DNA of 64,000 nt from a virus. Taxonomy: Duplodnaviria > Caudoviricetes. The position numbers and the translations under genes are program-made. How positions within the stretch are numbered: the first letter of the stretch is position 1; the number at the start of each line of letters is the position of its first letter. The stretch spans positions 701-64,700 of IMG/VR virus record IMGVR_UViG_3300049899_000550. One strand, given 5' to 3'. Positions 355 to 36,375 of this stretch are shown here, in pieces. Under the pieces are notes generated by a model that made no database searches, was not told where the DNA came from, and saw nothing but the letters and a program-made list of their open reading frames with translations.

Positions 355-358
355 GTGC

Positions 359-4991: not shown

Positions 4992-5072
4992 CTAAAAACC
5001 TATTAAATATGCTTCTGTCGAGTGTCCTAACTCAGTGCCACCACAAAAAGGGCAAGGTTTTAATTCCTGCAC
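4992..5072 (-). pseudogene. Truncated Lar-like (restriction alleviation) zinc-ribbon remnant, 26 aa
   Basis: GTG start right after the upstream stop gives MQELKPCPFCGG...; the second CxxC is missing. Confidence 0.45.
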
Positions 5073-5073
5073 G

Positions 5074-5277: not shown

Positions 5278-5304
5278 TGTTATTCTCCTTGTGGTGACAG
5301 ATAG

Positions 5305-13894: not shown

Positions 13895-16576
13895 TTAGAA
13901 TTCAAACAAGTTGTCGAACGTTGATCGGATATTTATGTTTGCTTCTATGTCCCAGTCTAACACGCCTAGCAGGTTCCCTACTTTTTGATCTACAATAGTA
14001 GTTTCCATTAGCTCATCGTCAAACGGTAAGTCTTTAAACCATTGCGGTATACGTAGTTCGTCTATTGGATACCCTGCGGAAGTATAGCCCATCGGATTAT
14101 CTTTTAACTTACATACAATAGTTTTCATTCCGTCAATAATAGATAAAGAATAGTTGTCGCTGTTCATCTTTTTAAGATTGTTCCAGTTCATTGCCGCTCG
14201 CACGTGTCCGGGCATGTTAGCTCTACCCTGCTTTGCTTCTGCCGCTGTAAACTTAGTCAAATTGTTTACACGCTTAGGTGTGCCTTTTTCCCATGCTGGT
14301 AAATCCTGAAACATAGTTTTAAATTCTTTTACTTTCTCTATAATCTCTTCGCGTCCTGTGCCTGTTAGTACATCTTCTAAAATTTCACTTAAAAAGTCCT
14401 GTACTATTTTGGGTGTGTCTGCACGTTTAAGATCAAGCCCCATCGCTTTTACTTTGCCTGGTCCGTTTATGTCTTTACGAGTACCTTCCTCGTCTACAAT
14501 CAATGCAGCATAACGTTTCTTTTTAATGAACAATCCTTTCGAAGCAACAATTTCACGACCACATATAATTAGCTCGCCCATATGTCTTGGACAATGAAAC
14601 GAACGTTCCATCATACCTGGAAAACTTCCATTAATTTGATCAGCTACATTGTCGTATAACTGTACTGCTGTCTCGACGCTCCATTCCATCTTGCCTGCTT
14701 CGACATCATCTTTAATAAACGGCCATGCACTGAAGTAAGTAGAGTCGGTATCCCCGTAAACAATAGCTTTGCCGACGTGGTCATACTCGTCATCAAAACA
14801 TTCGTTAATAAATGCGCTCATGTGTTTTACAATGGTACGCCCTGTTAACGTAGTAGACTGTCCTATACGCTTGTCAAAGAAACGACACCCCGGATTGAGA
14901 ATAGCCCCGTATAAACTGTTTAAGTTAATTTTCTTAACTAACTGACGCTTATCCCAAAACGCAATATCCTCTGGTGTGGTTGCTTCTTTCTTTTTCTTTT
15001 GCATAACCTTACGTTCTGCATACCACGTTTTTAATAACGTAGGCACAATAGCTTCTTTAGTATAATCAAATATAGTACCGTTGGCACTAAGGATCCAAGG
15101 GCGGTTCTCTTCAAAGATCATTTTGTATACTTCCGACGCGGTCATTACAGTAGATGCTTCTGCTTTGGCATTCTCTCCGTACATAGGTTCCCAGTCGACT
15201 GTAATTTCTGTGCCTGGTGTTTGTTCCATAACTGCTGTATATTCTAACGAGCCGAATATTCCTTCCCACGCTTTTGCAAATGTTATTTTCTTACTAGACG
15301 CCATTGATTCTGCCAACTGGTGACTAGTCATTACTGGTCGCAATTGTCCTACAATAGTTTCCGGTCCCATGTTTAAGGCACGAATAGCAGATGGGTATAG
15401 ACTGTTAATATCAACAGAGCCTACCCAATCATGCATACCTTTCTTGGGAAATGCTACATACGCACCAGCTGCCGCAGTATCTTCATCGTTGCGATGTTTT
15501 CTATTTGGTACTACCATTCCGTCTTTGTGCGCTTGGTTAATAATTGCTTGTTCTGTTACTGCAACCGCACCCATCGTTGTTGGAAGTAAAACTGTGTTCT
15601 GATGTGCTAGTTCGTTTGCTAAATCCATAAACTTTAATTTAGTATCCAACTTAGCTAACAGCATTGTATCTTCGCGGTTGTATTCTATAAACTTTGGAAA
15701 GTCCTGATTGTACAATTGATCTAATGTACCATCGTAAGGAACTTTCATGCCTACTTCTTCGTACTCGCCTATAGCATCTAAACTATAACTATGACGCTCT
15801 TCGTATGTGTAATTGCGATATAACTGCATGTAATCTAAATGTACACGACCAACTAAATCAAACGTAAGATTCTCTGCACCAAAGCGTTCAAACATTCTTT
15901 TCTTTGGTAACTGGTCCCACAAACAAAAACGTCTCGTGTCGTCCTTGCTTAATACACGTGTGATACGCATAACAGTATAAGGTATATCATACCCCTCGCT
16001 GTTCCACCCACTTAGTACATCCGCATCTTCTATTAAGTCTAAAAACGTTTTAAGCATTTCACCTTCGTTAGTAAACAAGAAACAGTTTTCGTATTGACTA
16101 CAAATTTCCTCTGCACTTTCTTTACTGTAAGACTTAGGCGGTAGTACAAGTGTTACTAACTTGTCTGCCCAATCTAAGTAAACCGAGATAGCAGTGATAG
16201 GATTAAACGGATCGTTTGTCGGTGCATAGCCAAGCTTCTGGTCAAAGTCAACTTCAATATCAAAAAATGCTACTTGTAACTTAGGAGAATCTTGTCCAAG
16301 ATAGTTATCGGCTAGACAACGGAATGCTGGTTTAATATCGCTTTCCCATAGTGTCTTGTGTCCGTGTATTTTTTGTTCTCGTTGGAACTCTTTAAATTGC
16401 TTTGTAGCAAAACGACTAACAGGCGTGTCAAAGATTGTTTTGTGTTTGCCCTTAGGATCGTTGTAATAGAACACATAGTTGGCCGGATAGTCTTCATACA
16501 CCCGTTTACCATCTACACGCTCTACGACATGTATGCGATCCGTTTTTCTGTCATACCAAGCGTCGACGTATGAAAT
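13895..16576 (-). CDS. Family B DNA polymerase (T4 gp43-like), probable ATT start
   Basis: Exonuclease FFDIEVD and GWNSEGYDIPY; polymerase DINSLYPS, KINLNSLYG and YGDTDS. The frame is open up to AGGAG-7 nt-ATT-TCA-TAC-GTC-GAC. Confidence 0.95.
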   Translation of the reverse strand: MSYVDAWYDRKTDRIHVVERVDGKRVYEDYPANYVFYYNDPKGKHKTIFDTPVSRFATKQFKEFQREQKIHGHKTLWESDIKPAFRCLADNYLGQDSPKLQVAFFDIEVDFDQKLGYAPTNDPFNPITAISVYLDWADKLVTLVLPPKSYSKESAEEICSQYENCFLFTNEGEMLKTFLDLIEDADVLSGWNSEGYDIPYTVMRITRVLSKDDTRRFCLWDQLPKKRMFERFGAENLTFDLVGRVHLDYMQLYRNYTYEERHSYSLDAIGEYEEVGMKVPYDGTLDQLYNQDFPKFIEYNREDTMLLAKLDTKLKFMDLANELAHQNTVLLPTTMGAVAVTEQAIINQAHKDGMVVPNRKHRNDEDTAAAGAYVAFPKKGMHDWVGSVDINSLYPSAIRALNMGPETIVGQLRPVMTSHQLAESMASSKKITFAKAWEGIFGSLEYTAVMEQTPGTEITVDWEPMYGENAKAEASTVMTASEVYKMIFEENRPWILSANGTIFDYTKEAIVPTLLKTWYAERKVMQKKKKEATTPEDIAFWDKRQLVKKINLNSLYGAILNPGCRFFDKRIGQSTTLTGRTIVKHMSAFINECFDDEYDHVGKAIVYGDTDSTYFSAWPFIKDDVEAGKMEWSVETAVQLYDNVADQINGSFPGMMERSFHCPRHMGELIICGREIVASKGLFIKKKRYAALIVDEEGTRKDINGPGKVKAMGLDLKRADTPKIVQDFLSEILEDVLTGTGREEIIEKVKEFKTMFQDLPAWEKGTPKRVNNLTKFTAAEAKQGRANMPGHVRAAMNWNNLKKMNSDNYSLSIIDGMKTIVCKLKDNPMGYTSAGYPIDELRIPQWFKDLPFDDELMETTIVDQKVGNLLGVLDWDIEANINIRSTFDNLFEF

Positions 16577-17076: not shown

Positions 17077-17484
17077 TTAGAGTGTAATTGGTTTAGTGCG
17101 TAGGTGAGCTGGAAATTGCTTTGAAAAGTTACGTAGTATAACGCCAGCTTCTGAATTTGCTTCGTTTTCTTGTTCGCTACCTGTTTCGCCACTTTCGTTA
17201 TTTATATTATCGTCTAAGTATTGACGACAATGTACTAATTCATGTGCTAGTGTTCGTAATATATCAACGGTGTGTCTGTTTACAGCTTGTAATGTAATTG
17301 AGTACTCGTTAAGATCTAAACAACCAAACGTTGGCTGGTCCCCACTTGTTTCAACTTCTTTAACTAAATGCATTGCAGGCAATTTTTCTAGTTTTAAGTA
17401 GTCATTAGCAAACGGAAGGAAGTCGCGCAATGCATCCATTAGCGTTGCGTTATTATCTGGCAAGTCTAGTTCGAATAAAAACAT
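17077..17484 (-). CDS. Zincin-like metallopeptidase, tagged N-terminus MFLFE
   Basis: TLAHELVHCRQ (HExxH) and downstream ENEANSEAG. Confidence 0.7.
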   Translation of the reverse strand: MFLFELDLPDNNATLMDALRDFLPFANDYLKLEKLPAMHLVKEVETSGDQPTFGCLDLNEYSITLQAVNRHTVDILRTLAHELVHCRQYLDDNINNESGETGSEQENEANSEAGVILRNFSKQFPAHLRTKPITL

Positions 17485-17485
17485 A

Positions 17486-18406
17486 TTATATTCCTATAAA
17501 CCTTTCGAAATCGTATAACAAATCAGTTACAGCACGAGTTTCACTTAGCACCTGTCCTACTTTGTTTATTGCTGCTGTTTTCTTATCGCCTTTTGGCGTA
17601 CCAACTTCACCACTTTTAACAGATATCATACTTTTAAATACACCAACAATACGGTTGTTACTGCGTGGATTCTTTATAGACTTCTTTGCTTGTGCTAATA
17701 GAGTATCAAAGTCAGCGTCTACATTATATTTATATAATAGCTTCTTTAAATCAGCAAATGAATTAGATTGCCAAACAACTTCGCGCCCTGCTTGCTTATA
17801 AGTGCCGGGTTCGTAAGTAACTATTCTAAGTTCTAGTTTTACACTAGACAAGTTAAATTCGTATTCCTGATTTTCTTCTAACGGTGGTACATTTTTAATG
17901 CCCATACGCGCAAAAACTTCTTCGGGCTTTTCTTCTACAGTTGATACCTTTACTAGTCCTAGTATTAGTCCTTGTACTTCTGCTGGAAAGTCTAAGAAGC
18001 CACCTTTAAATTCTGCTTCTGTTGCTGTTAATGCAATAACGTTATCTACCTGTACACTATAGCCTAACTTTTTATCGTGATATCGAACAGTAATAATTTC
18101 GCCCGAATTATAATGTCTGCGTCCGACATACTTGGGTGAAGAGAATGGTACAATAACTGTGTCTGGTAACTGCGTTAGATATGCCGCTAATTCTGTTTTA
18201 AGTGTTTTCTTATCTAAGTCGGATTCAATATGTGTAATTAAATCAATGTCACCAAAGTCTTCTTTACTTTGGTCGCTGTTGTAACTGCCACTAGGAGCAA
18301 TACTAACAAAGCCCGGGAATTTTTTAATTACCTTTTCGTAACTTTTTAGGAATTGTTTAAAGTCCTTACGACTTTGTATACGGTCTGCACCGGTTACGCC
18401 TGACAT
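17486..18406 (-). CDS. Pol-beta-superfamily nucleotidyltransferase
   Basis: SGSY...DFGDIDL and VQVD triad. Confidence 0.7.
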   Translation of the reverse strand: MSGVTGADRIQSRKDFKQFLKSYEKVIKKFPGFVSIAPSGSYNSDQSKEDFGDIDLITHIESDLDKKTLKTELAAYLTQLPDTVIVPFSSPKYVGRRHYNSGEIITVRYHDKKLGYSVQVDNVIALTATEAEFKGGFLDFPAEVQGLILGLVKVSTVEEKPEEVFARMGIKNVPPLEENQEYEFNLSSVKLELRIVTYEPGTYKQAGREVVWQSNSFADLKKLLYKYNVDADFDTLLAQAKKSIKNPRSNNRIVGVFKSMISVKSGEVGTPKGDKKTAAINKVGQVLSETRAVTDLLYDFERFIGI

Positions 18407-19542
18407 TACGTTTTGTCCTCGGTGCGGTGTGATGCTAAGGCACTATTAGACGGAAGAAATTTACCTGTTAGTCCCAATCGTGTTTGATTAGTAATCCAGT
18501 AGTCTTGCATATCATCTGGAATGTCTGCACGTGTGCTTTCTAATATTTTTAAATAGATATCTAATATAGCATTGTAATCTTGTATAGGCAAGCTCTTTAA
18601 TATCTTGTGTAATTTATAATAATCTTCTACTTTCGCTTTTGTAAATGCTTTACCGTATGCGTCCGATAATATTTGTAATGCTGTTTTAGGATCGTGTGCT
18701 ACAATTTCACCGGTGCTTTTATCTTTAACACCATCTACGTGGCTAAACGAATAGCCTGCGTGGTTAAATGCTGCAAGCATTAATTGTGTACGATGTAATC
18801 CTTTTACGTTGCTGTCTGCTGGATACTCCGAAGAGTAATAAGAAAAATTGAGCCATCCTATGTTACCAATCATCCAATCAACTTGCACACCTGTATCTAA
18901 ATTAGTTCCTTCTGGATCATACTGTGGATACAGACCAAATATATTTCCGGCGCTTACTTTCTTTTCATCAGTGTGTAGATTTGGAGCATGTGCATTAATA
19001 TATACTGTAAGTTGTCTTAAAAACGCCTTAAGCATTATTTGTTCTGGTGTTGCTGTTCTAGCACGTTTTGCTATTTTTTCTGCTTCGGCTTTTACGGCCT
19101 TGGGATCTACGTTCCATTTAGCAATTGCTTCGTCGGACATTTCTTGATCTAGTATATCACCAACGTCTACACCTAAATCAATGTCACCGCTTATTGGCTT
19201 CTTACCTACAGAACCCAAAGGGTGAAAATGTGCTGTATCAAATATATTTGCTTTTTGCGGAAATACAGATTTTAATTCTGCGAAGTAATGTTCTAGTGTG
19301 GGTTCAATATTCTCGCGTTTAATAGCGTTAGTTTTACCTTTAAAAACATTACCACCTTCGTTAAGGGTTACACCAACAATAGTCTGTACTAGTTTCCAAG
19401 CTTCTTTGTTTTTCTTGCTGTTAACTAGTCTTTTAAAGTGTGCTTTTTGTGCAGGCGAGGCGGTTTTATAGAAGCTGTGTACTTCATGCATACCGATATT
19501 GCCCGGATAACTTATTTCAGTTGTGAATTCTTTTGCTCGCAT
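18406..19542 (-). CDS. Tagged two-module protein with a Pol-beta-superfamily nucleotidyltransferase domain
   Basis: MRAKEFTTE; second module begins after LNE; LGSVGKKPISGDIDL and VQVDWM. Confidence 0.7.
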   Translation of the reverse strand: MRAKEFTTEISYPGNIGMHEVHSFYKTASPAQKAHFKRLVNSKKNKEAWKLVQTIVGVTLNEGGNVFKGKTNAIKRENIEPTLEHYFAELKSVFPQKANIFDTAHFHPLGSVGKKPISGDIDLGVDVGDILDQEMSDEAIAKWNVDPKAVKAEAEKIAKRARTATPEQIMLKAFLRQLTVYINAHAPNLHTDEKKVSAGNIFGLYPQYDPEGTNLDTGVQVDWMIGNIGWLNFSYYSSEYPADSNVKGLHRTQLMLAAFNHAGYSFSHVDGVKDKSTGEIVAHDPKTALQILSDAYGKAFTKAKVEDYYKLHKILKSLPIQDYNAILDIYLKILESTRADIPDDMQDYWITNQTRLGLTGKFLPSNSALASHRTEDKT

Positions 19543-19551
19543 AATATGTAT

Positions 19552-20814
19552 TTATTTAATTTTCTTTCCGAGGTCTTTGACCTTAAATTCGCCGTTAACA
19601 CGATCAAACACTATATCATTTAGTCTATTTTCAATACGGTAATCGTTAACATTTCTTTCTTGTACCATTAATCCTACAATATCTGGCAAATCTTCCCACT
19701 TAGCAGACTCACCGTTGGTTTCGGTATGATTTAATATTCCAGTACGAATGTCATATGCATCTGGACTTTCTACTTCGTCAATTATACTAAGTATTTCATG
19801 TGCATTATCATTGTAACTCGCATAATTCATATCATCTTTTTCAACTTGATCCCAGTCTACCATGCCTTCTTCGTCCATGTATCCTTCACCAGCTAACCAG
19901 TCATAATAACTAGTATCGTCAGCCTCTAAATCTGTGTAAATCTCCATAATAGTATCGCGTACAAGTTCACCTATTATTTTTACTCCGTGTACTAGCAATC
20001 TATCAGTTTGAAATTCTAATATTTCGTTGACGTCAGGATCTGTTTTTCTGAAAAAGTCAAGTAATCTAAAACGTTTTGTTAGTAATTTTTTTGCATTAAC
20101 TTCCGCATCACCTTCGTCCATGTATTGACCAGCAGCAAAACTTATTTGATATTTTTCACCATCATAATCGGGTTTCTTTGGTAATAAAATATAAAGCATT
20201 CCTTCACCTCTGTACTGATCAAACATATTGTTATTACGTGCTGCCGTACACCATGTAGTGCCCTGCCCGTAATAACATGCAGCTTCTTCACTTTCAGGTA
20301 CAATTACTCTTACTTCTGCATTATTAAGTACTTCTTTGTATTCACCTTTATCAATAGGTTCATCATCTGTTACTAGTAAATCTTTATATTGGTTGTGTAG
20401 TTGATATACGTCCATAACACCCAAGCGATTAATATCTTTATTTTCTGGTGCTAAATGATTCTTTATTTTAAGTTGGTTGTATGTATGCAAATAATCAGCA
20501 ACTCTAGATATCATATCCTCTAACTTAGTTTCGCCTATTGCGTATTGTTTAGCTAGCCATTGGGTGTATTTCTTCTGTGGAGTTGGGTCAGCATCCTCTA
20601 ACAATTTAAGTACTATATCTAATACCATTTGTTTAGCTTGCTGTACTTCTTTACTAGGCTTAGCAGTCTTATCGGGATTTTGAAATGCAAGAAATTGTGT
20701 AGGGTGACGTGTTCTGATATAATTATCTTTTTCTGCAACCGCCATTATTTTAGCACCTAAGTTCTGTGCTGTCTTATCACGCTTGTATTCGAATATAAAT
20801 TGTTTAGCTCTCAT
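19552..20814 (-). CDS. Tagged protein with a PcfJ-like W-C-T domain
   Basis: MRAKQFIFE; YYGQGTTWCTA...NMFDQY...EKYQ. Confidence 0.55.
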   Translation of the reverse strand: MRAKQFIFEYKRDKTAQNLGAKIMAVAEKDNYIRTRHPTQFLAFQNPDKTAKPSKEVQQAKQMVLDIVLKLLEDADPTPQKKYTQWLAKQYAIGETKLEDMISRVADYLHTYNQLKIKNHLAPENKDINRLGVMDVYQLHNQYKDLLVTDDEPIDKGEYKEVLNNAEVRVIVPESEEAACYYGQGTTWCTAARNNNMFDQYRGEGMLYILLPKKPDYDGEKYQISFAAGQYMDEGDAEVNAKKLLTKRFRLLDFFRKTDPDVNEILEFQTDRLLVHGVKIIGELVRDTIMEIYTDLEADDTSYYDWLAGEGYMDEEGMVDWDQVEKDDMNYASYNDNAHEILSIIDEVESPDAYDIRTGILNHTETNGESAKWEDLPDIVGLMVQERNVNDYRIENRLNDIVFDRVNGEFKVKDLGKKIK

Positions 20815-21233
20815 TATAATTCCCGCAGCATAACGGGATCACCGCCTGCTCTTCCAATTATTTCAAAATCGTATGATTCATACCACTTAACTAAATCAAA
20901 CTCGTTACCTTCGGATTTATCAGCTACTAATATCATAGCTTCGGCGTCTAGATCTATTGCTGCATCAACACCTTGCCATAACAATGCATTTCCGATACCG
21001 TCGTTTCTCTTCTCATCGTCGACCCAAATATTTTTAATGATACCAATTCTTTCAAATTGATTTTTTATTTTTTCTGCAATTTCAGCTGGAGCACCTTGCG
21101 ACATTAAATAATTTGCTAAATTTTCCTTATCGGTATCTACAACATAACCTTCGATGCCGCTCTCACCTATATCGCCATTGAGATCAACAATGATCTCCGA
21201 AGTGTTTTCAGTCATAAAATCTTTAGCTCGCAC
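20814..21233 (-). CDS. Tagged GNAT acetyltransferase
   Basis: MRAKDFMTE; IWVDDEKRNDGIGNALL, LVKWYESYDF. Confidence 0.75.
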   Translation of the reverse strand: MRAKDFMTENTSEIIVDLNGDIGESGIEGYVVDTDKENLANYLMSQGAPAEIAEKIKNQFERIGIIKNIWVDDEKRNDGIGNALLWQGVDAAIDLDAEAMILVADKSEGNEFDLVKWYESYDFEIIGRAGGDPVMLREL

Positions 21234-21672
21234 GTATCACTCCATGATTGGATCTTTTACTATCGTATTCAACACCCATCTTTTTCCAAAAGCCTTTTGC
21301 TTTGTTTTGTACATCATGTATCTTAAGTTCGCCGCCGGCAGTATCAACAATATCTTTTACAATAGAGCTACCTATACCTGCTCTCTTTAACCCTCTGTTT
21401 AATTCTATGTTAACAAGTCCAAGTATTTTATTTGTTCCATCTTCTACAAATAAATCAACGTGTCCTAAAAATACATCAGGGTCATCCGGATCACGTTTAG
21501 CAATCTCTATGTCGAATATTGTAAAGCGTAGTCTTGTACATCCTGCTTCGCTACTGCCGGAACGCATGCCACCTACTAAGCCGTATTTCTCGCCTGTGTA
21601 TTGAGCCATGCCCATACCCATTGGCTCTACGTCCATTACTGCGTCTTGTACAATTACTTCGTTTATTCTCAT
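21223..21672 (-). CDS. Tagged GNAT-like acetyltransferase
   Basis: MRINE; IEL...KRAGIGSSIV, AKGFWKKMG. Confidence 0.7.
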   Translation of the reverse strand: MRINEVIVQDAVMDVEPMGMGMAQYTGEKYGLVGGMRSGSSEAGCTRLRFTIFDIEIAKRDPDDPDVFLGHVDLFVEDGTNKILGLVNIELNRGLKRAGIGSSIVKDIVDTAGGELKIHDVQNKAKGFWKKMGVEYDSKRSNHGVIRAS

Positions 21673-22124
21673 TAGTGTTCTATTACAGTATACCCGTATG
21701 TACTATAATTAGTTCCGTATTCTATTGCCATAACAACAGTTATATTATCTTTAGTTGGGAAATGATAAAGAAGCTTGCCTGATTTTTTATGTGGAAAGTA
21801 TTCTGCGAACTCATGTAGATCATCTACTGCATTATTGTAAACTTCCATATTTACATTACCACCAATTAATACTGCCATTGGATAGTTAGTTCGCGAATGG
21901 TACTCGCCAAACAAGGTATGATTTGTTACTAGTTTAATCTTACCGCTAGACGATGCTCTAAATTTAGTTGTGTCTGGTGCCGAAGGATGCGATGTATCAT
22001 CGGTTTCATACTCCATCATCTCCTCAGCAAATTGCTTTAAATTGTTTTCAATTACATCTACAATTTCATCAAAGTATGGGACATTTTCAACTGTCTCCAT
22101 TAATTTTCTCATATCATTGCTCAT
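21672..22124 (-). CDS. Tagged hypothetical protein
   Basis: MSNDMRKLMETVE N-terminus. Confidence 0.65.
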   Translation of the reverse strand: MSNDMRKLMETVENVPYFDEIVDVIENNLKQFAEEMMEYETDDTSHPSAPDTTKFRASSSGKIKLVTNHTLFGEYHSRTNYPMAVLIGGNVNMEVYNNAVDDLHEFAEYFPHKKSGKLLYHFPTKDNITVVMAIEYGTNYSTYGYTVIEH

Positions 22125-22130
22125 AGTTTT

Positions 22131-23135
22131 TCATCCGTATACCAAGCTATCTATTCTTTTATATTTAATATTAAATGCATTCATTAGCAGTTCTACTTCA
22201 CGTAAACATTCGCTACGTCCGCCACCTACAATGTATGCTCCGTTATAACGTTTTAGTTGTGCTACACTTGTCCAATTAACTGCTAAGTTATCGTCTGCGT
22301 ATTTGTCGTCCCACTCCGAACCTAAGAATTGTTCCATTGCATAACTGTAATCATCTTCTTCTGCAAATAACTCCCTGGAATCGGTTACCTTTTGTATGTA
22401 CATTTCTCTAATAGTTTTAATAATAGAGCCTTCGTCCATTCCACCATCCATCCAACAACGAAAGTAACCATAGCCCTTATCGTTAATTCTAAAACGTTGC
22501 CAATCAATTATATCGTCGGTGTCAACTTCAACATAATCATCATACTCTTCGTCGTATGTGTAACGTTCTTCTTCTGGGACAATAGTATTTTCCCAGTATA
22601 ACTGTATGTCGCTAACTGTATCTTCTGTTATACCTGTTTCTTCTGCGTTAACAAACATTAGCACAGGTCCTGTGTTTTTGTTAACAAATTTAATTATGCG
22701 TTCGCTTTTAGGAGTGTCGTATGCAGGTTGCACATCAACAACGATGATAGGATGATTAAGCCCCTCGTTGATTGCTTCTCTAACTATAGCAGAGGCCGGA
22801 ATATTGCCTCTGTAAATATGATAGCCCTCTGCTTGTCCAGTTGGTTGGAATGTTCTGTGGTTAAAATTAGGAAGTTTAGTTATATCAATTTTAACTGCAT
22901 CATTGCCTATCGGAGTAGGAGACAAATAAACCATATGCTTGAACATTTCGTTTTCTCTGTCTGATGCTGCATTTTGTTTATATGTGTATGCTGCTATGCC
23001 GCCATCGCTTGTAAATCCGCGATGCATCGGATTGTGATACCAATAACGTTGGACCGGATCACCATACGTTTTACTAGGATCTTTAGCATAAGGAATGTTA
23101 ACTGATTCGCTTAATATTACTTCTTTTATTCGCAT
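22131..23135 (-). CDS. Tagged two-module protein: ART-like domain plus isochorismatase/cysteine-hydrolase-like domain
   Basis: Start moved to MRIKEVILSE. Module 1: WYH...VYLS...YRGNIP. After INE: IIVVDVQP...VGGGRSECL. Confidence 0.55.
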   Translation of the reverse strand: MRIKEVILSESVNIPYAKDPSKTYGDPVQRYWYHNPMHRGFTSDGGIAAYTYKQNAASDRENEMFKHMVYLSPTPIGNDAVKIDITKLPNFNHRTFQPTGQAEGYHIYRGNIPASAIVREAINEGLNHPIIVVDVQPAYDTPKSERIIKFVNKNTGPVLMFVNAEETGITEDTVSDIQLYWENTIVPEEERYTYDEEYDDYVEVDTDDIIDWQRFRINDKGYGYFRCWMDGGMDEGSIIKTIREMYIQKVTDSRELFAEEDDYSYAMEQFLGSEWDDKYADDNLAVNWTSVAQLKRYNGAYIVGGGRSECLREVELLMNAFNIKYKRIDSLVYG

Positions 23136-23740
23136 TAGAAATCTAAGTAGCCCCACATTCTAATATATGAGCTTGCTCCCGATGTATCTGCGAGATACTT
23201 GTTACCAGTTCTAAATACAACAACAAATGTTTTAGCGGGATGGTTCGCATCTGCTTGTGGGTTAGCGTTGCTGCCTTTGTCATTCATGTGTCTGCCAAAT
23301 ATATCAACATCGGTGTAGGTAGGAATTTCCATTTGATTTGTTAGTTTTTTAAATTGTAGTTCATCAATTGCACCACGCTGTCTGATATCACTAAAATAGC
23401 TCGGCTTCTCTAATAATTTAATTCCTAATTCTTCCATTGTGTTTAACCCGTCGGAACCAAATGCTTTTGTGAGTGATATAGATTGTATGCCCGAACCGGA
23501 CTTACCACCGGAGTTATATTCGCTTGCTAATGCATCTGCTATACGTATGTCTGAAGTAGTAGAAATAACTACTTCAGCACCATCGCTGCGTACACCAATT
23601 ATTTGTCCGCCGTTGCTGTTCTTTAAAGGGATAGCATAAAAGCTATCGTATCCTTCCGGTACGCCGATATCCGGGTTAGCTTCTTTGCTGCTGCCGAAGT
23701 TACCTTGTACTACGCCCTCTGTTATTTCATTTATTTTCAT
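23135..23740 (-). CDS. Tagged hypothetical protein
   Basis: MKINEITE N-terminus. Confidence 0.7.
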   Translation of the reverse strand: MKINEITEGVVQGNFGSSKEANPDIGVPEGYDSFYAIPLKNSNGGQIIGVRSDGAEVVISTTSDIRIADALASEYNSGGKSGSGIQSISLTKAFGSDGLNTMEELGIKLLEKPSYFSDIRQRGAIDELQFKKLTNQMEIPTYTDVDIFGRHMNDKGSNANPQADANHPAKTFVVVFRTGNKYLADTSGASSYIRMWGYLDF

Positions 23741-23749
23741 TGTTATTCC

Positions 23750-24736
23750 TTACATAAATGCAACAAAAAATTCACCAGAAGCACCTTCTACACGACTAAC
23801 TTCAAGTTTAAGGTTTTGTATAAATGGACTGCTGTTCCATGCTTTTGCTACACTGACTACATTTTCTATATCTTGATCATTCATTGGCTTCCCATCTTTT
23901 CGTGTCATTGATGTAGGATACGTTGTACTTAGATCATAATCGTGTTCATCTGTTGGAGGTAAATCGTGGTCTTCGCCCACGCTGCCGAATCTCATTCTAT
24001 ACCATTCTTTAAATTCCTGGTCAAGTATAATATCGTCAAAATCATTGCCGTATAACACAGGAGTATTGTACTCGTCATGTAGTTCGGCTTCTTGTTCTGC
24101 ATCAGCTTCGAACTCATCTTTAAATACAGCATTGTACCCTGAAATAATATCATCTATAGCATCAAGTTCTTCTTCGCCTGCATTTTCTAATTCTATATTA
24201 CCTTCGTCATTAATTGTAGCATTAAGATAATCGTCATAATCTTTATAACCGGCTAATTGTCTAATAGCATTAACCATCTCTGTTTTTTCATGTGCTGGTC
24301 CGTTATGTATAATAACTATTTCGGCAAGTAAAGATTCTTCTTCTAAGTTTCTTCCTCTGGGTATAACAGGTTTAGGTACAGGTATGCGTGGCTTTGGTGT
24401 AGGTAGAACGGATGCATTTAAATTTCTTTTTCTATCAAATGTAATTTCATCTGGGCCGTAATATTCTTCGCCTTCTCTTGGTCCGTCATACTGTAAGAAA
24501 TCCATTACGTCGTTGGTTGATATATCGTATCCGAAATGCTCTGGCTGCTCCGAATCGTGTAATTCAACATACATATTTCCTAAGCGATCATTTCTGTCTG
24601 TTAATATGTATCCATTAATTCCTCGCTTAACATCAATATAGTGTACATCCTTGGGATCTACTTTTGTTGTGAACAAGGCGCCTAAAAAGCCTAGTATCTT
24701 TTCTGTTTTGTTGTTTTTAATTTCGTTTAATTTCAT
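23750..24736 (-). CDS. Tagged acidic multi-module hypothetical protein
   Basis: MKLNEIK; internal LEEESLLAE junction. Confidence 0.7.
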   Translation of the reverse strand: MKLNEIKNNKTEKILGFLGALFTTKVDPKDVHYIDVKRGINGYILTDRNDRLGNMYVELHDSEQPEHFGYDISTNDVMDFLQYDGPREGEEYYGPDEITFDRKRNLNASVLPTPKPRIPVPKPVIPRGRNLEEESLLAEIVIIHNGPAHEKTEMVNAIRQLAGYKDYDDYLNATINDEGNIELENAGEEELDAIDDIISGYNAVFKDEFEADAEQEAELHDEYNTPVLYGNDFDDIILDQEFKEWYRMRFGSVGEDHDLPPTDEHDYDLSTTYPTSMTRKDGKPMNDQDIENVVSVAKAWNSSPFIQNLKLEVSRVEGASGEFFVAFM

Positions 24737-24755
24737 TGCTTATCTCAATTGTTAT

Positions 24756-24831
24756 GCTGCTTTTACTAGTACAGGTAGCGACTGTGCTAGACGGTAGCAG
24801 CCCCGTGCCGTAACCCTAACGGTCCTAGGGC
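24756..24831 (-). ncRNA. Candidate structured RNA (three hairpins, two possible pseudoknots)
   Basis: GC-rich intergenic island. Stems CCGT/ACGG, ACGG/CCGT and CTAG-C-ACAG/CTGT-A-CTAG; loop GCTGCT is complementary to the 3' AGCAGC. Confidence 0.55.
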
Positions 24832-24837
24832 TATGTC

Positions 24838-26559
24838 TTATCTACCTGTGCTTACATCGCCTGCAGGTTCAATCATGTAGTTATTTAGATGTATAGTCAT
24901 CTCACCACCGTATTCAGGATGTGTGAATAATACTGAAACTGCATCGTTGTGTACATAAACAACCTTACCTACAAGTCCTTCATCTTCTATGCTGGAGACC
25001 ATTTGTCTCCACTTCATTGCTTCACCTGTGTAACCGGCGCCTCTTGCACTTTTATTAGCGTGAGCTTTTAAACCGTCTGGAGCAATTCTAACATTACTGC
25101 CTTTCTCGTAAGCATCATCCCATTCGTATTCGCTAAGTGATTCACCACCAGCGGTTCTACCCTTAGGTTGACCTGCGTCTCGTATTGCTTTCTTTAATAC
25201 TGTTGTATCGTTAGAACGTTTGCCTGCTGTTCGTGCCTTTGGCTGTCCTGCGTCACGTATCGCTTTCTTTAATACATCACTTCCTTCATCCATGTACCCT
25301 TCATCTCGAAGTTGTTGTAACAGTTTATCTGATGTTTCTTTTTCCCTACGTTTTAAACTTTGAAGTATACCGTAAGTGTCTGAGCTACCAAAGCCTTCAC
25401 CTTCTGGCCAATCGCCACACGTCCATACTACTTCTTCTGCGATGTCTTCGTAATCAAAGTCTGGATAATTGCTTTTAATTTGTCTTGCGACACTAACACA
25501 TAAATCCCATTGGTGATCTTCTAGCCCGCTAAATATTCTATCTTCAACTTCGGACATTTCTATATCATCTTCTTTTAATGGTTTCATAGGAATAACAGGA
25601 CCACGCTCGCTCTTCTTAGGACGAGGCTTTGGCATTTGATTGCCCCACTTATTAGTTTGATGACCCCAGTTACCTTCATCTAGTTTATTGCTGTAATATT
25701 CCCACATTGTTGATGAAATTTTTCTTAGATCTTGAATACTTCCGTAATCATCCATCTTAGTGGTTACTCTATAAATTTGTTTTGCCCATTTCTCCATCAT
25801 TCTAGATATTTTATTTTCGCTATCATCTAATAGAACGTCAGGCCCTTGCTTCTTCGCTTCTTTCTTTTTGTCTTTCATTGGACCTGCGCGACCACATTTG
25901 TTTGGATTCTTTTTCATGTCTGCTGCAACAGGATTAGTTTTCTTTGGTTGTTTAGTTTCTGCTACGCCGTTAGCTGCTGCCTGCGCTTCTGCGCCACTGT
26001 TGTGAATTTGGATTCCTACTGATTCAACATCGTCTTTAGTTTTACCATTAAAGCCCGAACCACCATCTTCATAATCTTCTACACTCCACCACCAGTTAAA
26101 ACTAGGAGTATATCCTTTATCGTTGTAAACGTGTAATTCAACTCCTGGATTTCTTTCTGGTCCTAATGCTTTAACCCAATAACCGTGCGTTACTTTTTTG
26201 CCTAATCTATTTAATTTAGGTATCGGATCGCCCATCATCTTATCAAATTCTGCGTTGATTGCTTCGTTTAAATCACTTGTCTTAATATCAAATTCTGCCG
26301 CTGCCGCTGCCGCATCCTGCCCAGTTTTTTTCATCCATTTCTCAGCCTTTTTGATAGCTCTTTCTTTTGATGCTTGTGCTCTTTTTACAGCGGCACCTGC
26401 AGTTTCACGTCCTTCGGATGTTTTCTTTTTCTTTTTCTTTGACTTTTTAGGTTGTTTGTAACTACCACCAAATAACAAACCTACGTTTGGTCCTGTTCCG
26501 CCTTGTGGAGTTGCTGCTATAGCGCCTACGGAATTCTCGCCTAATTCTGAAATTTTCAT
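24838..26559 (-). CDS. Tagged modular head-associated protein / putative polyprotein
   Basis: MKISELGE; alternating basic and acidic short modules separated by [ILV]-x-E-type junctions. Confidence 0.7.
   Translation of the reverse strand: MKISELGENSVGAIAATPQGGTGPNVGLLFGGSYKQPKKSKKKKKKTSEGRETAGAAVKRAQASKERAIKKAEKWMKKTGQDAAAAAAEFDIKTSDLNEAINAEFDKMMGDPIPKLNRLGKKVTHGYWVKALGPERNPGVELHVYNDKGYTPSFNWWWSVEDYEDGGSGFNGKTKDDVESVGIQIHNSGAEAQAAANGVAETKQPKKTNPVAADMKKNPNKCGRAGPMKDKKKEAKKQGPDVLLDDSENKISRMMEKWAKQIYRVTTKMDDYGSIQDLRKISSTMWEYYSNKLDEGNWGHQTNKWGNQMPKPRPKKSERGPVIPMKPLKEDDIEMSEVEDRIFSGLEDHQWDLCVSVARQIKSNYPDFDYEDIAEEVVWTCGDWPEGEGFGSSDTYGILQSLKRREKETSDKLLQQLRDEGYMDEGSDVLKKAIRDAGQPKARTAGKRSNDTTVLKKAIRDAGQPKGRTAGGESLSEYEWDDAYEKGSNVRIAPDGLKAHANKSARGAGYTGEAMKWRQMVSSIEDEGLVGKVVYVHNDAVSVLFTHPEYGGEMTIHLNNYMIEPAGDVSTGR
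25148..25275 (-). repeat. Internal 75-nt-period tandem duplication
   Basis: VLKKAIRDAGQPK(A/G)RTAG occurs twice, with synonymous differences. Confidence 0.9.
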
Positions 26560-26616
26560 GTTAAATCCTTAGTATAATATACGTACAATATTAAGTATTT
26601 ATGCAGAAACAATATC

Positions 26617-26645
26617 TTGACAAGCGATTAACAATATGCTATAAT
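26617..26645 (+). promoter_or_regulatory. Perfect consensus sigma70 promoter
   Basis: TTGACA-17 nt-TATAAT. Confidence 0.9.
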
Positions 26646-26672
26646 ATGTCATTAATCTCACAGAGAACACAT

Positions 26673-27107
26673 ATGATAAATCAAGTAATGGAAATAATCG
26701 AAACAGAATTAGTAGACTATATTGACGGACCGTTCGAAGGCGAAGATTATTGGACAGAAGACGATTTTATATACGTTGGAAATAAGAACTTTGTACTAGC
26801 CGCTAATATAATGCGTAAAGTAAATAACAGCGGTGATTTTAATAAACGTTTAGTAAAAATCCGTACCGCGGCAGATGTGATTACTTTAGGGTTCGATTCG
26901 TTGTTAGATGCAGAACCAGTATTTACAGTTAAAATTGGTCCTACTAAAGAAAAGACTATCGAGCTAAAAGAAAGCGAAGAAGGTCGTATTGTATTATATA
27001 TTAATAAAGAAAGAAGTTCAGCAACATTCAAAACGCTCAAAGCGAGCAAATCCTACATCAAAAAACTAGATAAAACTCTATGCAGCGAGGATGAGTTTAT
27101 TTCTTAA
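26673..27107 (+). CDS. Hypothetical protein (isolated plus-strand early gene)
   Basis: Start moved to ATG 26673, downstream of the promoter. Confidence 0.7.
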   Translation: MINQVMEIIETELVDYIDGPFEGEDYWTEDDFIYVGNKNFVLAANIMRKVNNSGDFNKRLVKIRTAADVITLGFDSLLDAEPVFTVKIGPTKEKTIELKESEEGRIVLYINKERSSATFKTLKASKSYIKKLDKTLCSEDEFIS

Positions 27108-29235
27108 GTTGTGCTGCTTTAGCGGCTACAGCATTTTCCACTTCATCAGGTAGAGCCTTGTTAACTGCATCGTTAACAGCGGCATCTACTTCTGCTGCAT
27201 CTACTTCTGCATCATCCTCGGCTTCTGCTTCTGCCGCTTGTGCATCTGCTTCTGATGGAATAGGTTCAGCTTCTGCTGCGCCGCCGCCGGTACTTGCAGT
27301 TGGTACAACAGGCTTATTAGATGGTTTAACAAACTCATACATATCTTGTTCTTCGCGCTTTTCTATCTCACCTTTTAGTTGACGTAGTTCGTACTGTGTT
27401 CTGTTTATCTCGTGCTGTATTGATTGCATTTTGTCTCGATAGTTGCTCTGTTTCGCTTGTCTATATTGACTCTTTAAATTGCCAAGTTCTTTCTTTAGCC
27501 GCTTCATTTCGTCTTTGTTTGATTCTTGGTTTGCCGCTTCGTCTGTACGTAAATCATCATCTATACCACGTGATTTAACTCCGCCCTTCTTACGTAACTT
27601 AGCAAGTTCTTTTAACGCATGGTCTATTTCGTTTATGTTCATTTTTAACTCTGCAAACCGTTTGGCAATATCTTGCCAATCGCTTGCTGTTGCTTGTTGT
27701 GCTCGCATAGACAAGTCTAATAGTTGACGTGTAGCACGTGACATACGGAATTTTAATTTGGCTGGGTTAGCATCGGTACCATGTATCATTGGATCCATTG
27801 CATCATCTGCATTTGGTTCAATTGGTGCCTCTTTTAATTTCACATCGTTCTTTCGTTTTATAGCAACTGGTGAGCGTGTTGTGACAATCTCTCTCATGTC
27901 TATTGCTTTGTCTGGTAAGTGTCGATCATTAATATAGCGAATACGATATTCGCCCTTGGCATTGGGTCCTACCCAACTTATAATTTTTTCACTAACATTA
28001 TCGTTGCTTGTTGCACGTTCTGTATGTACAGTACTATCCATATTGTCCCACATCGGGTCGTCGACACTGGTGGCACCAGGACCACCATATGAACCTGTTG
28101 CTAATATGCCAGCAAGTGCTAAGTTCGCTAGTCTGCCCTCTGCTATAAATTCTTCATGATCGTTAAAACCGCCTAAGTATTCAGATGCATACATTTTGCC
28201 CGGACGCACTTTAGTTGGGTAAGGTCCACCACCGCCAAAGTCTAAATTAAAATTAAGTTCAACATAACTAGGCTTTGTACCAGCTTCGTGTGGTTTCATA
28301 ATTGCTGAATATCTATTCTTTTCGGTGTTGTATGATAATGCTTTTAAGTAATAATCATCTGGTACTATATCGAAGTCTAATATACCATTTTGTAAGTAAT
28401 GCATATTATCTTCTGACCAATTATTTCCGTCAGATGAATGATGTGCTGCTAGCCTTTCTTTAGCATATGATGCTTCTTTTATATTGCCATTCATAGCATG
28501 ATAGATTGAAGTGGCAGAAACTGGTTTGCCTGTTCCGTCGCGGAATCTAAGTTTACTAGAATCTATTTTACCTTCGTGATATTTCTCATCGTAAGTAACA
28601 CCGTTCTTGCCCATTGATATATTATATACACGATCGCCTTCTTCTTGTATATCTGTAATTCTAAATTTACCTCTCTTATTTGGGAAACCAGAAACATAAA
28701 ATTTACTATCAGTCGTTTCGTTAAAGTTTTTAAACTCTTCTGCTAGACTTTCTTCTAAGCTTTTAACTGATTCCATCGGTACCGCGCTATAACGCATTCT
28801 GTAGTATTCTTTTTCGCCTGGACTTAATTGCTTGTTCATGCGCTTGGCTTTGTCTTTAGCTTCTTCGCGTGACATGCTTTTAGATACAATAGATCTGCCC
28901 TTACTATCTGTGTTACCCTTTTTAGAACCGATACTGCCGCCTTTTACTACAACCATGTACAACATGTCTTCTGACATTTCATGCAGTTCGCGCATGAAGT
29001 TTTCTGAATCGGGTTCGTCAACATCGTTGTTGTTATCTACTGCAACATCCCCATCAATTATTTCTTCATCATCGTCTTTATCAACTTTTACAATTTTACC
29101 GGCTTCGCCTACTAGCTTATTAATAAAGCCCTTGCCCTTCTTGGGCATATCGGTACCACGTGCATGATCGCCACGTTTTTGCTTTGGCTCCCCTGCAAAT
29201 TTATTCACTGCCTCTAAAAGTTTTTTCATGGTCAT
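27097..29235 (-). CDS. Tagged modular head-associated protein / putative polyprotein
   Basis: MTMKKLLEA; junctions LAE, FNE, IKE, IAE, LKE; Ala/Glu-rich C-terminus. Confidence 0.7.
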   Translation of the reverse strand: MTMKKLLEAVNKFAGEPKQKRGDHARGTDMPKKGKGFINKLVGEAGKIVKVDKDDDEEIIDGDVAVDNNNDVDEPDSENFMRELHEMSEDMLYMVVVKGGSIGSKKGNTDSKGRSIVSKSMSREEAKDKAKRMNKQLSPGEKEYYRMRYSAVPMESVKSLEESLAEEFKNFNETTDSKFYVSGFPNKRGKFRITDIQEEGDRVYNISMGKNGVTYDEKYHEGKIDSSKLRFRDGTGKPVSATSIYHAMNGNIKEASYAKERLAAHHSSDGNNWSEDNMHYLQNGILDFDIVPDDYYLKALSYNTEKNRYSAIMKPHEAGTKPSYVELNFNLDFGGGGPYPTKVRPGKMYASEYLGGFNDHEEFIAEGRLANLALAGILATGSYGGPGATSVDDPMWDNMDSTVHTERATSNDNVSEKIISWVGPNAKGEYRIRYINDRHLPDKAIDMREIVTTRSPVAIKRKNDVKLKEAPIEPNADDAMDPMIHGTDANPAKLKFRMSRATRQLLDLSMRAQQATASDWQDIAKRFAELKMNINEIDHALKELAKLRKKGGVKSRGIDDDLRTDEAANQESNKDEMKRLKKELGNLKSQYRQAKQSNYRDKMQSIQHEINRTQYELRQLKGEIEKREEQDMYEFVKPSNKPVVPTASTGGGAAEAEPIPSEADAQAAEAEAEDDAEVDAAEVDAAVNDAVNKALPDEVENAVAAKAAQLKK

Positions 29236-29244
29236 TGTCTCTGT

Positions 29245-29580
29245 TTATTGTGTATTTAGCAAAGCAAATGTAATGTCATATGCACTTGCCTTTGTAATTT
29301 TATAATCGCTAGCAACGAAATTTGTAATAATTAAATCAGCTAATCTAAATTTAGCTTGTGCTGGGTTTTTAAGTATTGGCACAAGTTTAATTGAATATTC
29401 CTTTGCCTCGCCGTCTAACCAAATATTTTCTGTTAATGGATTCTTACCCCATAACCATGCTCGCTCTGTTAGCAAATCGTGATTCGCATATATTCTATAT
29501 GCCGGCTTGATATAGTCTTTCTCAAATACCCAGTTTGGTTGTGCGCAATATACATTTACTTCAATGTTGATCTGAGGCAT
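29245..29580 (-). CDS. Hypothetical protein
   Basis: ORF track; tiles with neighbours. Confidence 0.6.
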   Translation of the reverse strand: MPQINIEVNVYCAQPNWVFEKDYIKPAYRIYANHDLLTERAWLWGKNPLTENIWLDGEAKEYSIKLVPILKNPAQAKFRLADLIITNFVASDYKITKASAYDITFALLNTQ

Positions 29581-30773
29581 CGTACCTCACTTAATACTTT
29601 TTGTAATGCTTCTAGTTTTAGTGCCTTCCGATTTAAAACATCTGTGCCCGGCCGTACATCGTTTGTCATTGACATTGAATAACGTGGATCCTTAGCTTGC
29701 TTTGCATTCTTAGCAATAACACCAACGCCAGCTGCATTTTCTCGCATTTCGTGCTTATCAGCAACTCTAAGATTGTCAGGGTAATTATCTGTATCTGTAA
29801 GATTGTCGATTTGTTGTTGTAAATTTTCAACATGATTTTCTAGCTTCATTTCAAGAGCACCTAACTGAGCAATACGCTCGTCGTCAGCCGCCTTTTCGTT
29901 ATCTAGTCTATCAATATCTTTTTTCTCGCGACTTATAATATATAATGTCAACGCTTCTTCTGGCGTACTTGCTTCTGGATGAGCAATTTGCGCCTTACGA
30001 TTCATTGCCATTACTAGTGCGTTAGTAGCTTTCTTAGAGTGTTCATTGGACCCGGTGTGCTTATGATCGTGATCATGTTCATCATCTTCTGGTCTGTCTT
30101 TTCTTTCGCCTGCTTCAAATATTTCATTAATATGCATTGCTGCTTCCTCGGTAGTTATTTTGGCTGTCATTAGTTTTTCAATACTTTTACTGTATTTGCC
30201 AAACAAGTCTGTAATAATTAATTTTTTAGTTTCTTCGTCTGCATCTGCAAACATAGCTCTTATTTCTGTCGCGCTATTTGCTGCATTACCTAATACAGTA
30301 AAATCCATAGTAGGTACGGTTGTTATGTAGGCATGTTTATCTGCTGTATGTGCTTCGCTTAAATCGTTTGGCATTGCTTGTAAATAAGCCGGACTGCCAT
30401 CTTTCTTTGGTTTAAATGTAAAGCGAGGATCATCTTCTGCCATATCCTTTTCACTTACTGCGAATAGCAATACCGTATTGTTTTTGTCTATTGTGTTAAC
30501 TAGCTCTAAGCTTTGATATGGTTGTTTAGATTGTAATACAGCACTTGGATTAATGCCTGTTAACTTCATCATTCTTTGTTTTTCTTTAAAGTTAAATGGA
30601 GATTTAGGAGGATCTACTTTGTCGCTTGTACTAATATACACGCTATCACTGCCATATTTTTGTACTAAATGATCGTAGACAGCTTTGTGGCCTTTGTGAA
30701 AGGGTTGAAAGCGTCCTGGATAAATTACAAGAACATTGTGTTGTAAAGCTTCGAATAGTTGTGTTAAAAACAT
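29556..30773 (-). CDS. Tagged HIGH-family nucleotidyltransferase (cytidylyl/NMN-adenylyltransferase-like) with C-terminal modules
   Basis: MFLTQLFE; PGRFQPFHKGH; SATEIR. Confidence 0.8.
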   Translation of the reverse strand: MFLTQLFEALQHNVLVIYPGRFQPFHKGHKAVYDHLVQKYGSDSVYISTSDKVDPPKSPFNFKEKQRMMKLTGINPSAVLQSKQPYQSLELVNTIDKNNTVLLFAVSEKDMAEDDPRFTFKPKKDGSPAYLQAMPNDLSEAHTADKHAYITTVPTMDFTVLGNAANSATEIRAMFADADEETKKLIITDLFGKYSKSIEKLMTAKITTEEAAMHINEIFEAGERKDRPEDDEHDHDHKHTGSNEHSKKATNALVMAMNRKAQIAHPEASTPEEALTLYIISREKKDIDRLDNEKAADDERIAQLGALEMKLENHVENLQQQIDNLTDTDNYPDNLRVADKHEMRENAAGVGVIAKNAKQAKDPRYSMSMTNDVRPGTDVLNRKALKLEALQKVLSEVRCLRSTLK

Positions 30774-30820
30774 AGTAAATCTAATTCCATAGAGTATACT
30801 ATATTTATGCTAGAGATGTT

Positions 30821-34345: not shown

Positions 34346-34371
34346 TTGTAATACCTCGCTTATATTAATAT

Positions 34372-35934: not shown

Positions 35935-36375
35935 TTAATTTGTTAAGGTGTCTTGTATGCTAGCCATCCATTCTTTCTGCGGGAGGCGCGCACTGTTCAT
36001 TGCATCAATTTCAACTACTTTTATAATATGGTCCGGGCTAATAAAACCATCTGCTCTCAATGCATCGCCTGCACCTGTCTTTAAATTAATATCGTCGGAT
36101 GGATCTGTGTGCCAGTCATCTGTTCTTGCAAACTTAACTATTGATATGGGTTTTTGGAATTGAAAGAACTGTTTTAATGACCATTTAAAAGCATCTTCAG
36201 GGTGGGCAAATGCAAACACGCCACCATCTGCGTTATAACGTTCGCCTTCTCCATTTGCCCAGTTACTTGTTTGTAACGGTAGCAAACCTTCCTTTGATAT
36301 TTTAGGAACATACTCCGAGAATGTAACGTGATATACTGCTTCTGTGCTTTCTCTTAAAAATTCTCTGCTTTGCAT
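35935..36375 (-). CDS. Tagged ADP-ribosyltransferase-fold protein, copy 2
   Basis: MQSREFLRE; VYHVT...ISKEGL...GVFAF. Confidence 0.6.
   Translation of the reverse strand: MQSREFLRESTEAVYHVTFSEYVPKISKEGLLPLQTSNWANGEGERYNADGGVFAFAHPEDAFKWSLKQFFQFQKPISIVKFARTDDWHTDPSDDINLKTGAGDALRADGFISPDHIIKVVEIDAMNSARLPQKEWMASIQDTLTN

Follow-up and report, generated by a model that had tools for sequence, protein, structure and literature searches.

An N-terminal peptide resembling the T4 capsid-targeting sequence on ten mostly unrelated proteins of a jumbo-phage fragment, a candidate packaging tag for enzymatic cargo

The paper of Mullaney and Black from 1996 is said to be the source for the capsid-targeting sequence (CTS) of the internal proteins (IPs) of phage T4. 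The prohead protease gp21 removes this CTS from IPI, IPII and IPIII and likewise the N-terminal propeptides from Alt and gp24 (reviewed in PMC9026906 and PMC3012670); it cleaves after Glu at L/I-X-E (PMC9026906). The N-terminal ten residues of IPIII are enough for targeting, for which positions 4 and 7 (Y4 and F7) are important, while positions 8 and 10 (I8 and E10) are important for processing (PMC9026906). The CTS and the variable CTS-bearing internal proteins of T-even phages have long been known, and the CTS has been suggested to let T4-like phages pack varied proteins (PMC9026906, PMC3012670). We analyzed a stretch of 64,000 nucleotides (hereafter, the window), which covers positions 701 to 64,700 of the IMG/VR record IMGVR_UViG_3300049899_000550, and found a common peptide at the N-termini of ten of its open reading frames (ORFs). 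We consider that this peptide, with fair probability, serves as a capsid-targeting and cleavage tag of the T4 type and that its cargo is expanded and largely enzymatic.

Effectors fused to MuF or portal domains, and polyvalent proteins, are said to have been treated by Iyer et al. in 2017. By such means myoviruses and jumbo phages pack ADP-ribosyltransferases (ARTs), Nudix, Macro and other enzymes for early deployment (PMC9503650), and the candidate cargo of the window likewise comprises ART-fold and NAD-related proteins; packaging was inferred there from fusion to a folded structural domain or from gene neighbourhood, whereas here it would follow from a short cleavable peptide on stand-alone proteins. 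In the phiKZ-like giant phages (phiKZ, 201phi2-1 and SPN3US), many head-internal proteins are cut after Glu by a gp21-related protease, and the conserved N-termini of diverged paralogs have been proposed to be CTS-like (PMC5694885, PMC10052503). These phages differ in that their propeptides are mostly longer than 100 residues, the cuts are at S/A/G-x-E, the proteins form paralog families and the lineage is another one. The Dar antirestriction proteins of P1 are also comparable, since several proteins that counter host defences enter the capsid in an ordered manner and are then injected (PMC9024508, PMC12810830). However, P1 is an unrelated phage, the loading of Dar proteins needs specific partner proteins, and they have no common short tag of this sequence.

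The ORFs of the window were scored with a position-specific scoring matrix (PSSM) trained solely on related loci (80 viral loci, 1.34 Mb in all, retrieved with a family alignment). A clear common N-terminal peptide was present on eight consecutive cassette genes (18406–26559) and on a pair of paralogs at 35935 and 36393, as follows.

18406–19542, minus strand: g378, core tag MRAKEFTTE, PSSM 22.5; Pol-beta-type nucleotidyltransferase (NTase) with the GSVGKKPISGDIDL motif
19552–20814, minus strand: g420, core tag MRAKQFIFE, PSSM 24.2; most conserved cargo family, fold unassigned
20814–21233, minus strand: g139, core tag V/MRAKDFMTE with a GTG start, PSSM 19.0; GNAT-like
21223–21672, minus strand: g149, core tag MRINEV, PSSM 15.0; small protein with a faint GNAT signal (Acetyltransf_1, E 0.038)
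22131–23135, minus strand: g334, core tag MRIKEVILSE with the ATG at 23135 as the start, PSSM 16.0
23135–23740, minus strand: g201, core tag MKINEITE, PSSM 14.5
23750–24736, minus strand: g328, core tag MKLNEI, PSSM 11.6; acidic
24838–26559, minus strand: g573, core tag MKISELGE, PSSM 11.5; Lys-rich, partly low-complexity, first gene after a late-type promoter
35935–36375 and 36393–36842, minus strand: q146 and q149, tag MQSREFLRE, PSSM 12.1 each; paralogs with a predicted ART-superfamily fold

The PSSM scores of these ten ORFs ranged from 11.5 to 24.2; the next best ORF of the window scored 0.7 and the median was −16. A strict regular expression matched the same ten and missed all of the remaining minus-strand ORFs (about 75); of 419 internal Met positions it matched one. 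Internal tag-like sites numbered zero in the cassette proteins and one in the remainder of the window. In all-vs-all BLASTP, the tagged proteins showed no similarity to each other except for q146 and q149 (72% identical), and their likeness ended after about 10 residues. The claim that otherwise unrelated ORFs share the peptide was thus borne out apart from this pair, and the PSSM agreed with the further claim that replication and modification genes lack it; the chaperone and tail genes were likewise untagged.

The sequence-only reading had counted at least 12 tagged cargo proteins. Every N-terminus that it listed was present in the sequence at the gene in question, all on the minus strand, but the PSSM and the regular expression reduced the count to ten robust cases and four doubtful ones. 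The four fell outside the core motif, having only [LI]-x-E within the first nine residues, and their starts scored from −0.5 to below −9.8.

17077–17484, minus strand: g135, doubtful variant MFLFE; zincin-like, HELVH (HExxH at residue 81)
21672–22112, minus strand: g146b, doubtful variant MRKLMETVE at an internal ATG; absent from the PSSM hits
27097–29229, minus strand: g710, doubtful variant MKKLLE, PSSM −9.8; large, charged, Lys-rich and low-complexity
29556–30773, minus strand: g405, NMN-adenylyltransferase (NMNAT)-like nucleotidyltransferase of the HxGH type, extended at the N-terminus by 12 residues, MFLTQLFEALQH (doubtful variant MFLTQLFE), and acidic in its C-terminal half

Ten proteins thus bear out the observation, and four leave it in doubt.

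The tag was much more frequent at ORF starts than elsewhere in the related loci: M[RK]xx[EQD][FILVM] occurred at 392 of 1600 ORF starts (24.5%) and at 55 of 8414 internal Met positions (0.65%), an odds ratio of 49 across the 80 loci. The consensus was M-R-A-x-E-F-[LI]-x-E, with an additional M-K-[IL]-N-E-[IL] subtype. Positions free in the regular expression were conserved as well (A3, 45%; L/I7, 64%; E9, 55%), and in 169 of the 186 tags with E9 the residue at position 7 was L or I. The tagged genes of the relatives were co-oriented in 372 cases against 12, in runs of up to nine. When stripped of their tags, the tag-bearing ORFs of these loci formed 92 BLAST clusters, with one large component linked by domain-shuffled fusion proteins; frequent tagged families were Amidoligase_2, NTP_transf_2, an NT5C-like protein (below threshold) and GP88. 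In the near-complete relatives, strict MRxx[DE]F starts numbered 4–10 per genome, compared with 0–2 for a reversed-pattern control. In regards to the complete 329-kb relative G003, 18 of 434 ORFs reached a PSSM score of at least 8, all on one strand; one of them is probably a false positive from a membrane protein, and ten lay within 20 kb around the g420 homolog.

The tag also appears to be modular, since homologs of g405, g378 and g135 occur with the full tag, with a minimal tag or with none. The g378 homologs of the relatives carry either the full tag or a minimal MQLFE, MKITE or MILLE prefix (M-x-[LI]-x-E) before GGNVFK, and the homolog of the Flavobacterium phage immuto has no prefix at all. 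The g405 homologs have the extension (MF[IL]xxLFE, for example MFIAELFEE) or begin directly at the core MNVIAVYPGRFH. The core tag was found on 11 of 38 g135 homologs of the relatives, others begin with MNIFEMFDE or carry further variants, and the homolog of the T4-like cyanophage B23 begins with MNYKQFLRES. Orthologs of q146 bear differing tag variants. In the metagenomic proteins P0069 and P0076, the tag precedes a q146-like ART-fold domain that is fused to a g420-like domain, a different domain order, which would connect two cargo families of the window. In AlphaFold2 (AF2) models the mean confidence (predicted local distance difference test, pLDDT) of g420 was 48 for residues 1–10 and 95 for residues 11–20, and tag residues 1–9 of q146 were below 50 (41). 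The tag is thus predicted to be unstructured and outside the confident fold in two unrelated cargo proteins.

A common start could also be a by-product of gene-start shuffling or of a translation-initiation preference, a recombination or expression cassette being copied along with every gene start and the peptide having no targeting function. T4-type phages shuffle regulatory cassettes, MK and MR starts are frequent in AT-rich phages, and Arg2, the sole skewed codon of the tag, was AGA in 77% of cases against a background of 29%, as expected for A-rich second codons. However, the codons at A3, E5, F6 and E9 matched the genome background among 322 distinct tags (GAA at E5, 76% vs 77%; TTT, 69% vs 68%). 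This match indicates that the amino acids rather than the DNA are conserved and that selection acts on the peptide; the codon data thus disfavour a translation or DNA-cassette artefact. Moreover, the DNA upstream of the cassette genes was not conserved among them, about 75 other ORFs of the window, including highly expressed late genes, had no such motif, and the motif was absent from five related cultured jumbo phages of similar base composition. We regard the by-product explanation as very improbable.

The tag resembled the T4 propeptides residue by residue. The T4 record gives MKTYQEFIAE for ipII and ipIII, MKTFKEFTST for ipI, MAKINELLRE for gp24, MELITELFDE for alt and MLKEQLIAE for gp22. 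Like the T4 CTS, the tag is about 10 residues long, stands at the extreme N-terminus of unrelated proteins and has a final Glu preceded by L/I at P3. Shifted by one residue, the consensus retains F7, I8 (as I/L) and E10 of T4, so that the core E-F-[IL]-x-E is common with MKTYQEFIAE, and the MKINE[IL] subtype parallels the start of gp24. It differs in being one residue shorter and in having Arg-Ala at positions 2–3, and the T4 tags scored low on the ungapped PSSM of the relatives (ipII/III, −4.6; gp24, 7.6 at +1). In the window, L/I-x-E closed at residues 8–10 in six of the ten core tags; of the other four, P3 is M or T in two, and the remaining two show just I/L-N-E at residues 3–5. The tag is real, strictly N-terminal, portable across unrelated families, under selection as a peptide and similar to the T4 tags.

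The head-maturation machinery was examined in the relatives. Peptidase_S77 was above the Pfam cut-off in all five large near-complete relatives, and the gene order in G003 was portal, core proteins, protease, scaffold and major capsid protein. In the relatives, a gp21-family protease and a T4-type scaffold are features in common with T4, as are TATAAATA-like late motifs ahead of the genes and a cargo that varies among phages. The tag appears to be confined to phages with T4-type head-maturation machinery. The G003 scaffold (L091 11720–12817) contained 17 [LI]xE sites (46.6 per 1000 residues), above the 97th percentile of the genome. Its AEEINEL and AEEIKEF repeats resemble the tag core; the idea that the tag is a copy of the scaffold repeat proved weak, all of these repeats being under the PSSM threshold. 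Complex prediction for the G003 protease and a tagged 107-residue G003 protein gave a score of 0.00 and no verdict, and was used neither for nor against binding. The window itself contained, at 60296–60715 on the minus strand, a truncated gp21-type protease paralog of 139 residues, 29% identical to the G003 protease (E 5e-15), in which the His motif LGELGHP is kept and NYGFRG stands in place of the Ser motif GVSSRG. Its product may bind the tag or have a regulatory function, and the gene sits among small ORFs, far from head genes.

The presence of ATAAATA ahead of several cassette genes, as noted in the sequence-only reading, held at three positions on the coding strand, 13–43 nt upstream of starts.

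19549–19555, minus strand: ATAAATA, 13 nt upstream of g378, atypically close
26596–26602, minus strand: ATAAATA, 43 nt upstream of g573, heading a tightly packed operon from g573 down to g135
30802–30808, minus strand: ATAAATA, 35 nt upstream of g405, heading g405-g111-g710

Gene gaps in the operon from g573 to g135 were between −11 and +18 nt, save one of 101 nt. Over the window, the coding strand held 17 copies of ATAAATA and the opposite strand 5. Of the coding-strand copies, twelve lay 13–47 nt upstream of starts, including those of the fibre operon, the virion/endolysin operon and the three cassette positions; the motif is probably the −10 element of the late promoters of this phage. In the relatives it was found upstream of 21.7% of tagged and 10.9% of untagged genes (P = 3e-7). 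In the window it also stands upstream of the ClpB-like gene and a methyltransferase-like gene.

A link to the virion is given by phage PA5oct, which has a T4-like prohead protease/scaffold gene (PMC7318152). Its gp205 is a g420 homolog that starts with MKLFEVF and is recorded in GenBank as a structural protein found by electrospray ionisation tandem mass spectrometry (ESI-MS/MS). In the first 150 kb of PA5oct the motif was on gp205 and one 99-residue ORF only, and this phage therefore appears to lack broad tag use.

For the tagged proteins we infer core binding, cleavage, virion presence, ejection into the host and a takeover or counter-defence role. The tagged genes would be transcribed late, and the tag would dock each protein on the scaffolding core while the prohead assembles. 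Cleavage after the final tag Glu, at L/I-x-E, would be the work of a prohead protease of the gp21 family, and the mature protein, freed inside the head, would leave with the DNA at infection. The earlier comparison with the T4 CTS is strengthened by the L/I-x-E ending, the likeness to the T4 sequences, the gp21-type protease of the relatives, the modularity, the predicted disorder, the late-promoter context and the one virion-detected homolog; its figure of at least 12 cargo proteins gives way to ten. Its suggestion of a payload larger than that of T4 is plausible: T4 has three IPs and Alt, compared with ten tagged proteins in this fragment and about 16–18 tagged genes in the complete relative.

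Several observations weigh against a T4-type packaging tag. MRAxEF starts numbered zero in Phosso, Atu_ph07, XaC1 and CBB (the closest cultured phages by DNA polymerase) and in SCTP-2. Tyr4 of T4 has no counterpart in the tag. In the window, MRAKEFTTE and MRAKDFMTE lack L/I at P3 of the last Glu, and MRINEVIVQD and MKLNEIKNN lack Glu at position 9. The proteomic data point, gp205, is thin because PA5oct bears the tag on one large protein only and is no broad user of the MRAxEF tag. The contig contains no head genes, so that its own protease and scaffold are not visible here. The NMNAT-like and NTase families probably work as ordinary cytoplasmic enzymes in other phages, because the g378-like and g306-like/NadR genes of phage immuto are untagged and stand among replication genes. 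Finally, the tagged clusters of G003 are not beside its head genes.

This last point also counts for a different function, in which the tag would be an address or docking signal for another machine: a phage chaperone/unfoldase set, a leader-reading modifying enzyme, or a tail or baseplate site. A ClpB-like AAA+ protein and DnaJ directly adjoin the cassette, with GroEL/ES nearby. Against such a machine, the tag closes in the gp21-type L/I-x-E and is T4 CTS-like residue by residue, and chaperone genes were not among the families conserved around the tagged clusters. The untagged families near these clusters were led by a 103-residue ORF (37 of 80 loci), followed by the DNA polymerase (25 of 80). 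No untagged family was thus found beside the tagged clusters in the majority of loci, which speaks against a dedicated reader enzyme in the neighbourhood, and we consider a docking signal of this kind unlikely.

The proposed cargo of the T4-type tag consists of two putative Pol-beta NTases, an NMNAT-like enzyme, two predicted ART-fold proteins, a zincin-like protein, GNAT-like proteins and others without an assigned function. These labels, already given by the sequence-only reading, gained partial support from the Pol-beta NTase motifs, the HExxH motif, the HxGH NMNAT-like domain and the ART fold, while the GNAT matches stayed sub-threshold. Such proteins could instead be packaged by the CTS-like tag and, rather than being injected as host-directed effectors, serve within the head to condense DNA, act in scaffolding, control head size or protect the genome. 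Being rich in Lys and of low complexity, the products of g573 and g710 recall basic internal proteins, and the same kind of propeptide is found on the T4 structural proteins gp24, gp22, gp67 and gp68 (PMC9026906). However, most tagged proteins show enzyme signatures (NTase, NMNAT-like, ART fold, zincin, amidoligase and nucleotidase) with no obvious role in a DNA-filled head, and T4 Alt and IPI are a precedent for ejected cargo (PMC9026906, PMC3012670). A purely head-internal role is accordingly judged quite unlikely. Processing of g573 and g710 as polyproteins, with cuts at tag-like sites within them, was not supported, as no internal site reached the PSSM threshold and there was no enrichment compared with the rest of the window.

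The cargo further differs from that of T4 in its size, being mostly mid-sized putative enzymes of 140–570 residues and not small basic proteins, and in its arrangement, the tagged genes forming long operons beside the DNA polymerase and not near head genes; the tag is known here from genes alone. The g420 family had about 90 metagenomic homologs with 30–45% identity, nearly all of which start with MRA[KR][QED]F[IL]xE. Foldseek gave no match for its fold at E ≤ 0.001, and the best VIA match (Z 5.9) was to a helical part. In regards to q146, the top Foldseek matches of the AF2 model (pLDDT 73) were all ART folds, including Tpt1/KptA (E 1e-4) and DarT1 (TM 0.54); q146 and q149 had no Pfam match, and tblastn of q146 against phages gave no match. 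The HxGH motif of g405 lies in PGRFQPFHKGH, CTP_transf_like (PF01467) was matched with 28.6 bits against a cut-off of 21 bits, and there was a weak PDB match to the NMNAT 2qjt (E 0.0015). Its acidic C-terminal half contains MHINEIFEA. Both Acetyltransf_7 and Acetyltransf_1 matched g139 under the Pfam cut-offs, and Peptidase_M91 matched g135 under the cut-off (E 0.0096). A PDB sequence search with g378 gave no match, g334 had neither a Pfam nor a PDB sequence match, and g146b had no family in Pfam-type family searches. One tagged homolog of g201 was found among the related loci. One homolog of g710 retains MDMKKLLES; g710 also contains an internal EEFIAE identical to the T4 CTS core.

Three further ORFs lie among the cassette genes.

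17486–18406, minus strand: g306, untagged Pol-beta-type NTase with the GSYNSDQSKEDFGDIDL motif, PSSM −35; start/stop-coupled with g378
29245–29580, minus strand: g111, small untagged ORF in the operon, no family
26601–27107, plus strand: sole opposite-strand ORF in the cassette, 168 residues, not low-complexity, no Pfam family

The N-terminus of g306 (MSGVTGADR) resembles the start of the 907-residue NadR-annotated protein of immuto, which adjoins the untagged g378-like NTase (L115 5998–9631). A single NAD or nucleotide pathway may unite the products of g306, g378 and g405. The plus-strand ORF occupies the 537-nt gap between g710 and g573.

The 64-kb window is part of a single 64.7-kb viral contig with genes almost all on the minus strand. 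Its family-B DNA polymerase (13895–16501) was nearest to those of Sinorhizobium phage Phosso (50.5%) and Agrobacterium phage Atu_ph07 (45.9%), followed by XaC1, CBB and RaK2-like phages, and the contig was assigned on this basis to a T4-related jumbo phage, of which it is a fragment. It encodes a clamp loader, an endolysin, a virion structural protein, a 1435-residue fibre-like protein, and ClpB-like, DnaJ and GroEL/GroES proteins. The ClpB/ClpA-like double AAA+ protein, DnaJ with its C-terminal domain, GroEL and GroES (32009–35178 and 54980–56924, minus strand) amount to a chaperone set of unusual completeness. No match came from Rfam or tRNA scans of the window, nor from megablast of the cassette against phage genomes. 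In the related-phage locus L002, positions 1–5600 contain about 15 small ORFs whose starts overlap the previous stop at a repeated 'LV.IEVVM' junction, which looks like a repeated gene-boundary cassette.

Neither this consensus nor jumbo-phage operons of CTS-tagged enzymes turned up in the open-access literature that was searched. Should the tag act as it does in T4, sequence alone would allow packaged cargo to be predicted across hundreds of uncultured huge phages, and foreign proteins could be packaged into phage heads with a second natural CTS. The payload would be far larger and more enzymatic than that of the model phage and would point to a layer of host takeover or counter-defence acting before any phage gene expression. 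A bolder and more tentative possibility is that a large uncultured clade of T4-related huge phages loads 10–18 stand-alone enzymes per genome by a nine-residue address-and-cut tag, with cargo centred on NAD and nucleotides that would act within seconds of infection and might, for instance, counter defences based on NAD depletion or nucleotide signalling. This cargo would comprise the putative ART-fold proteins, NMNAT-like enzyme, Pol-beta NTases, amidoligases and nucleotidases of the window and its relatives, and scanning for the tag would then read out the injected protein set of a phage directly from sequence.

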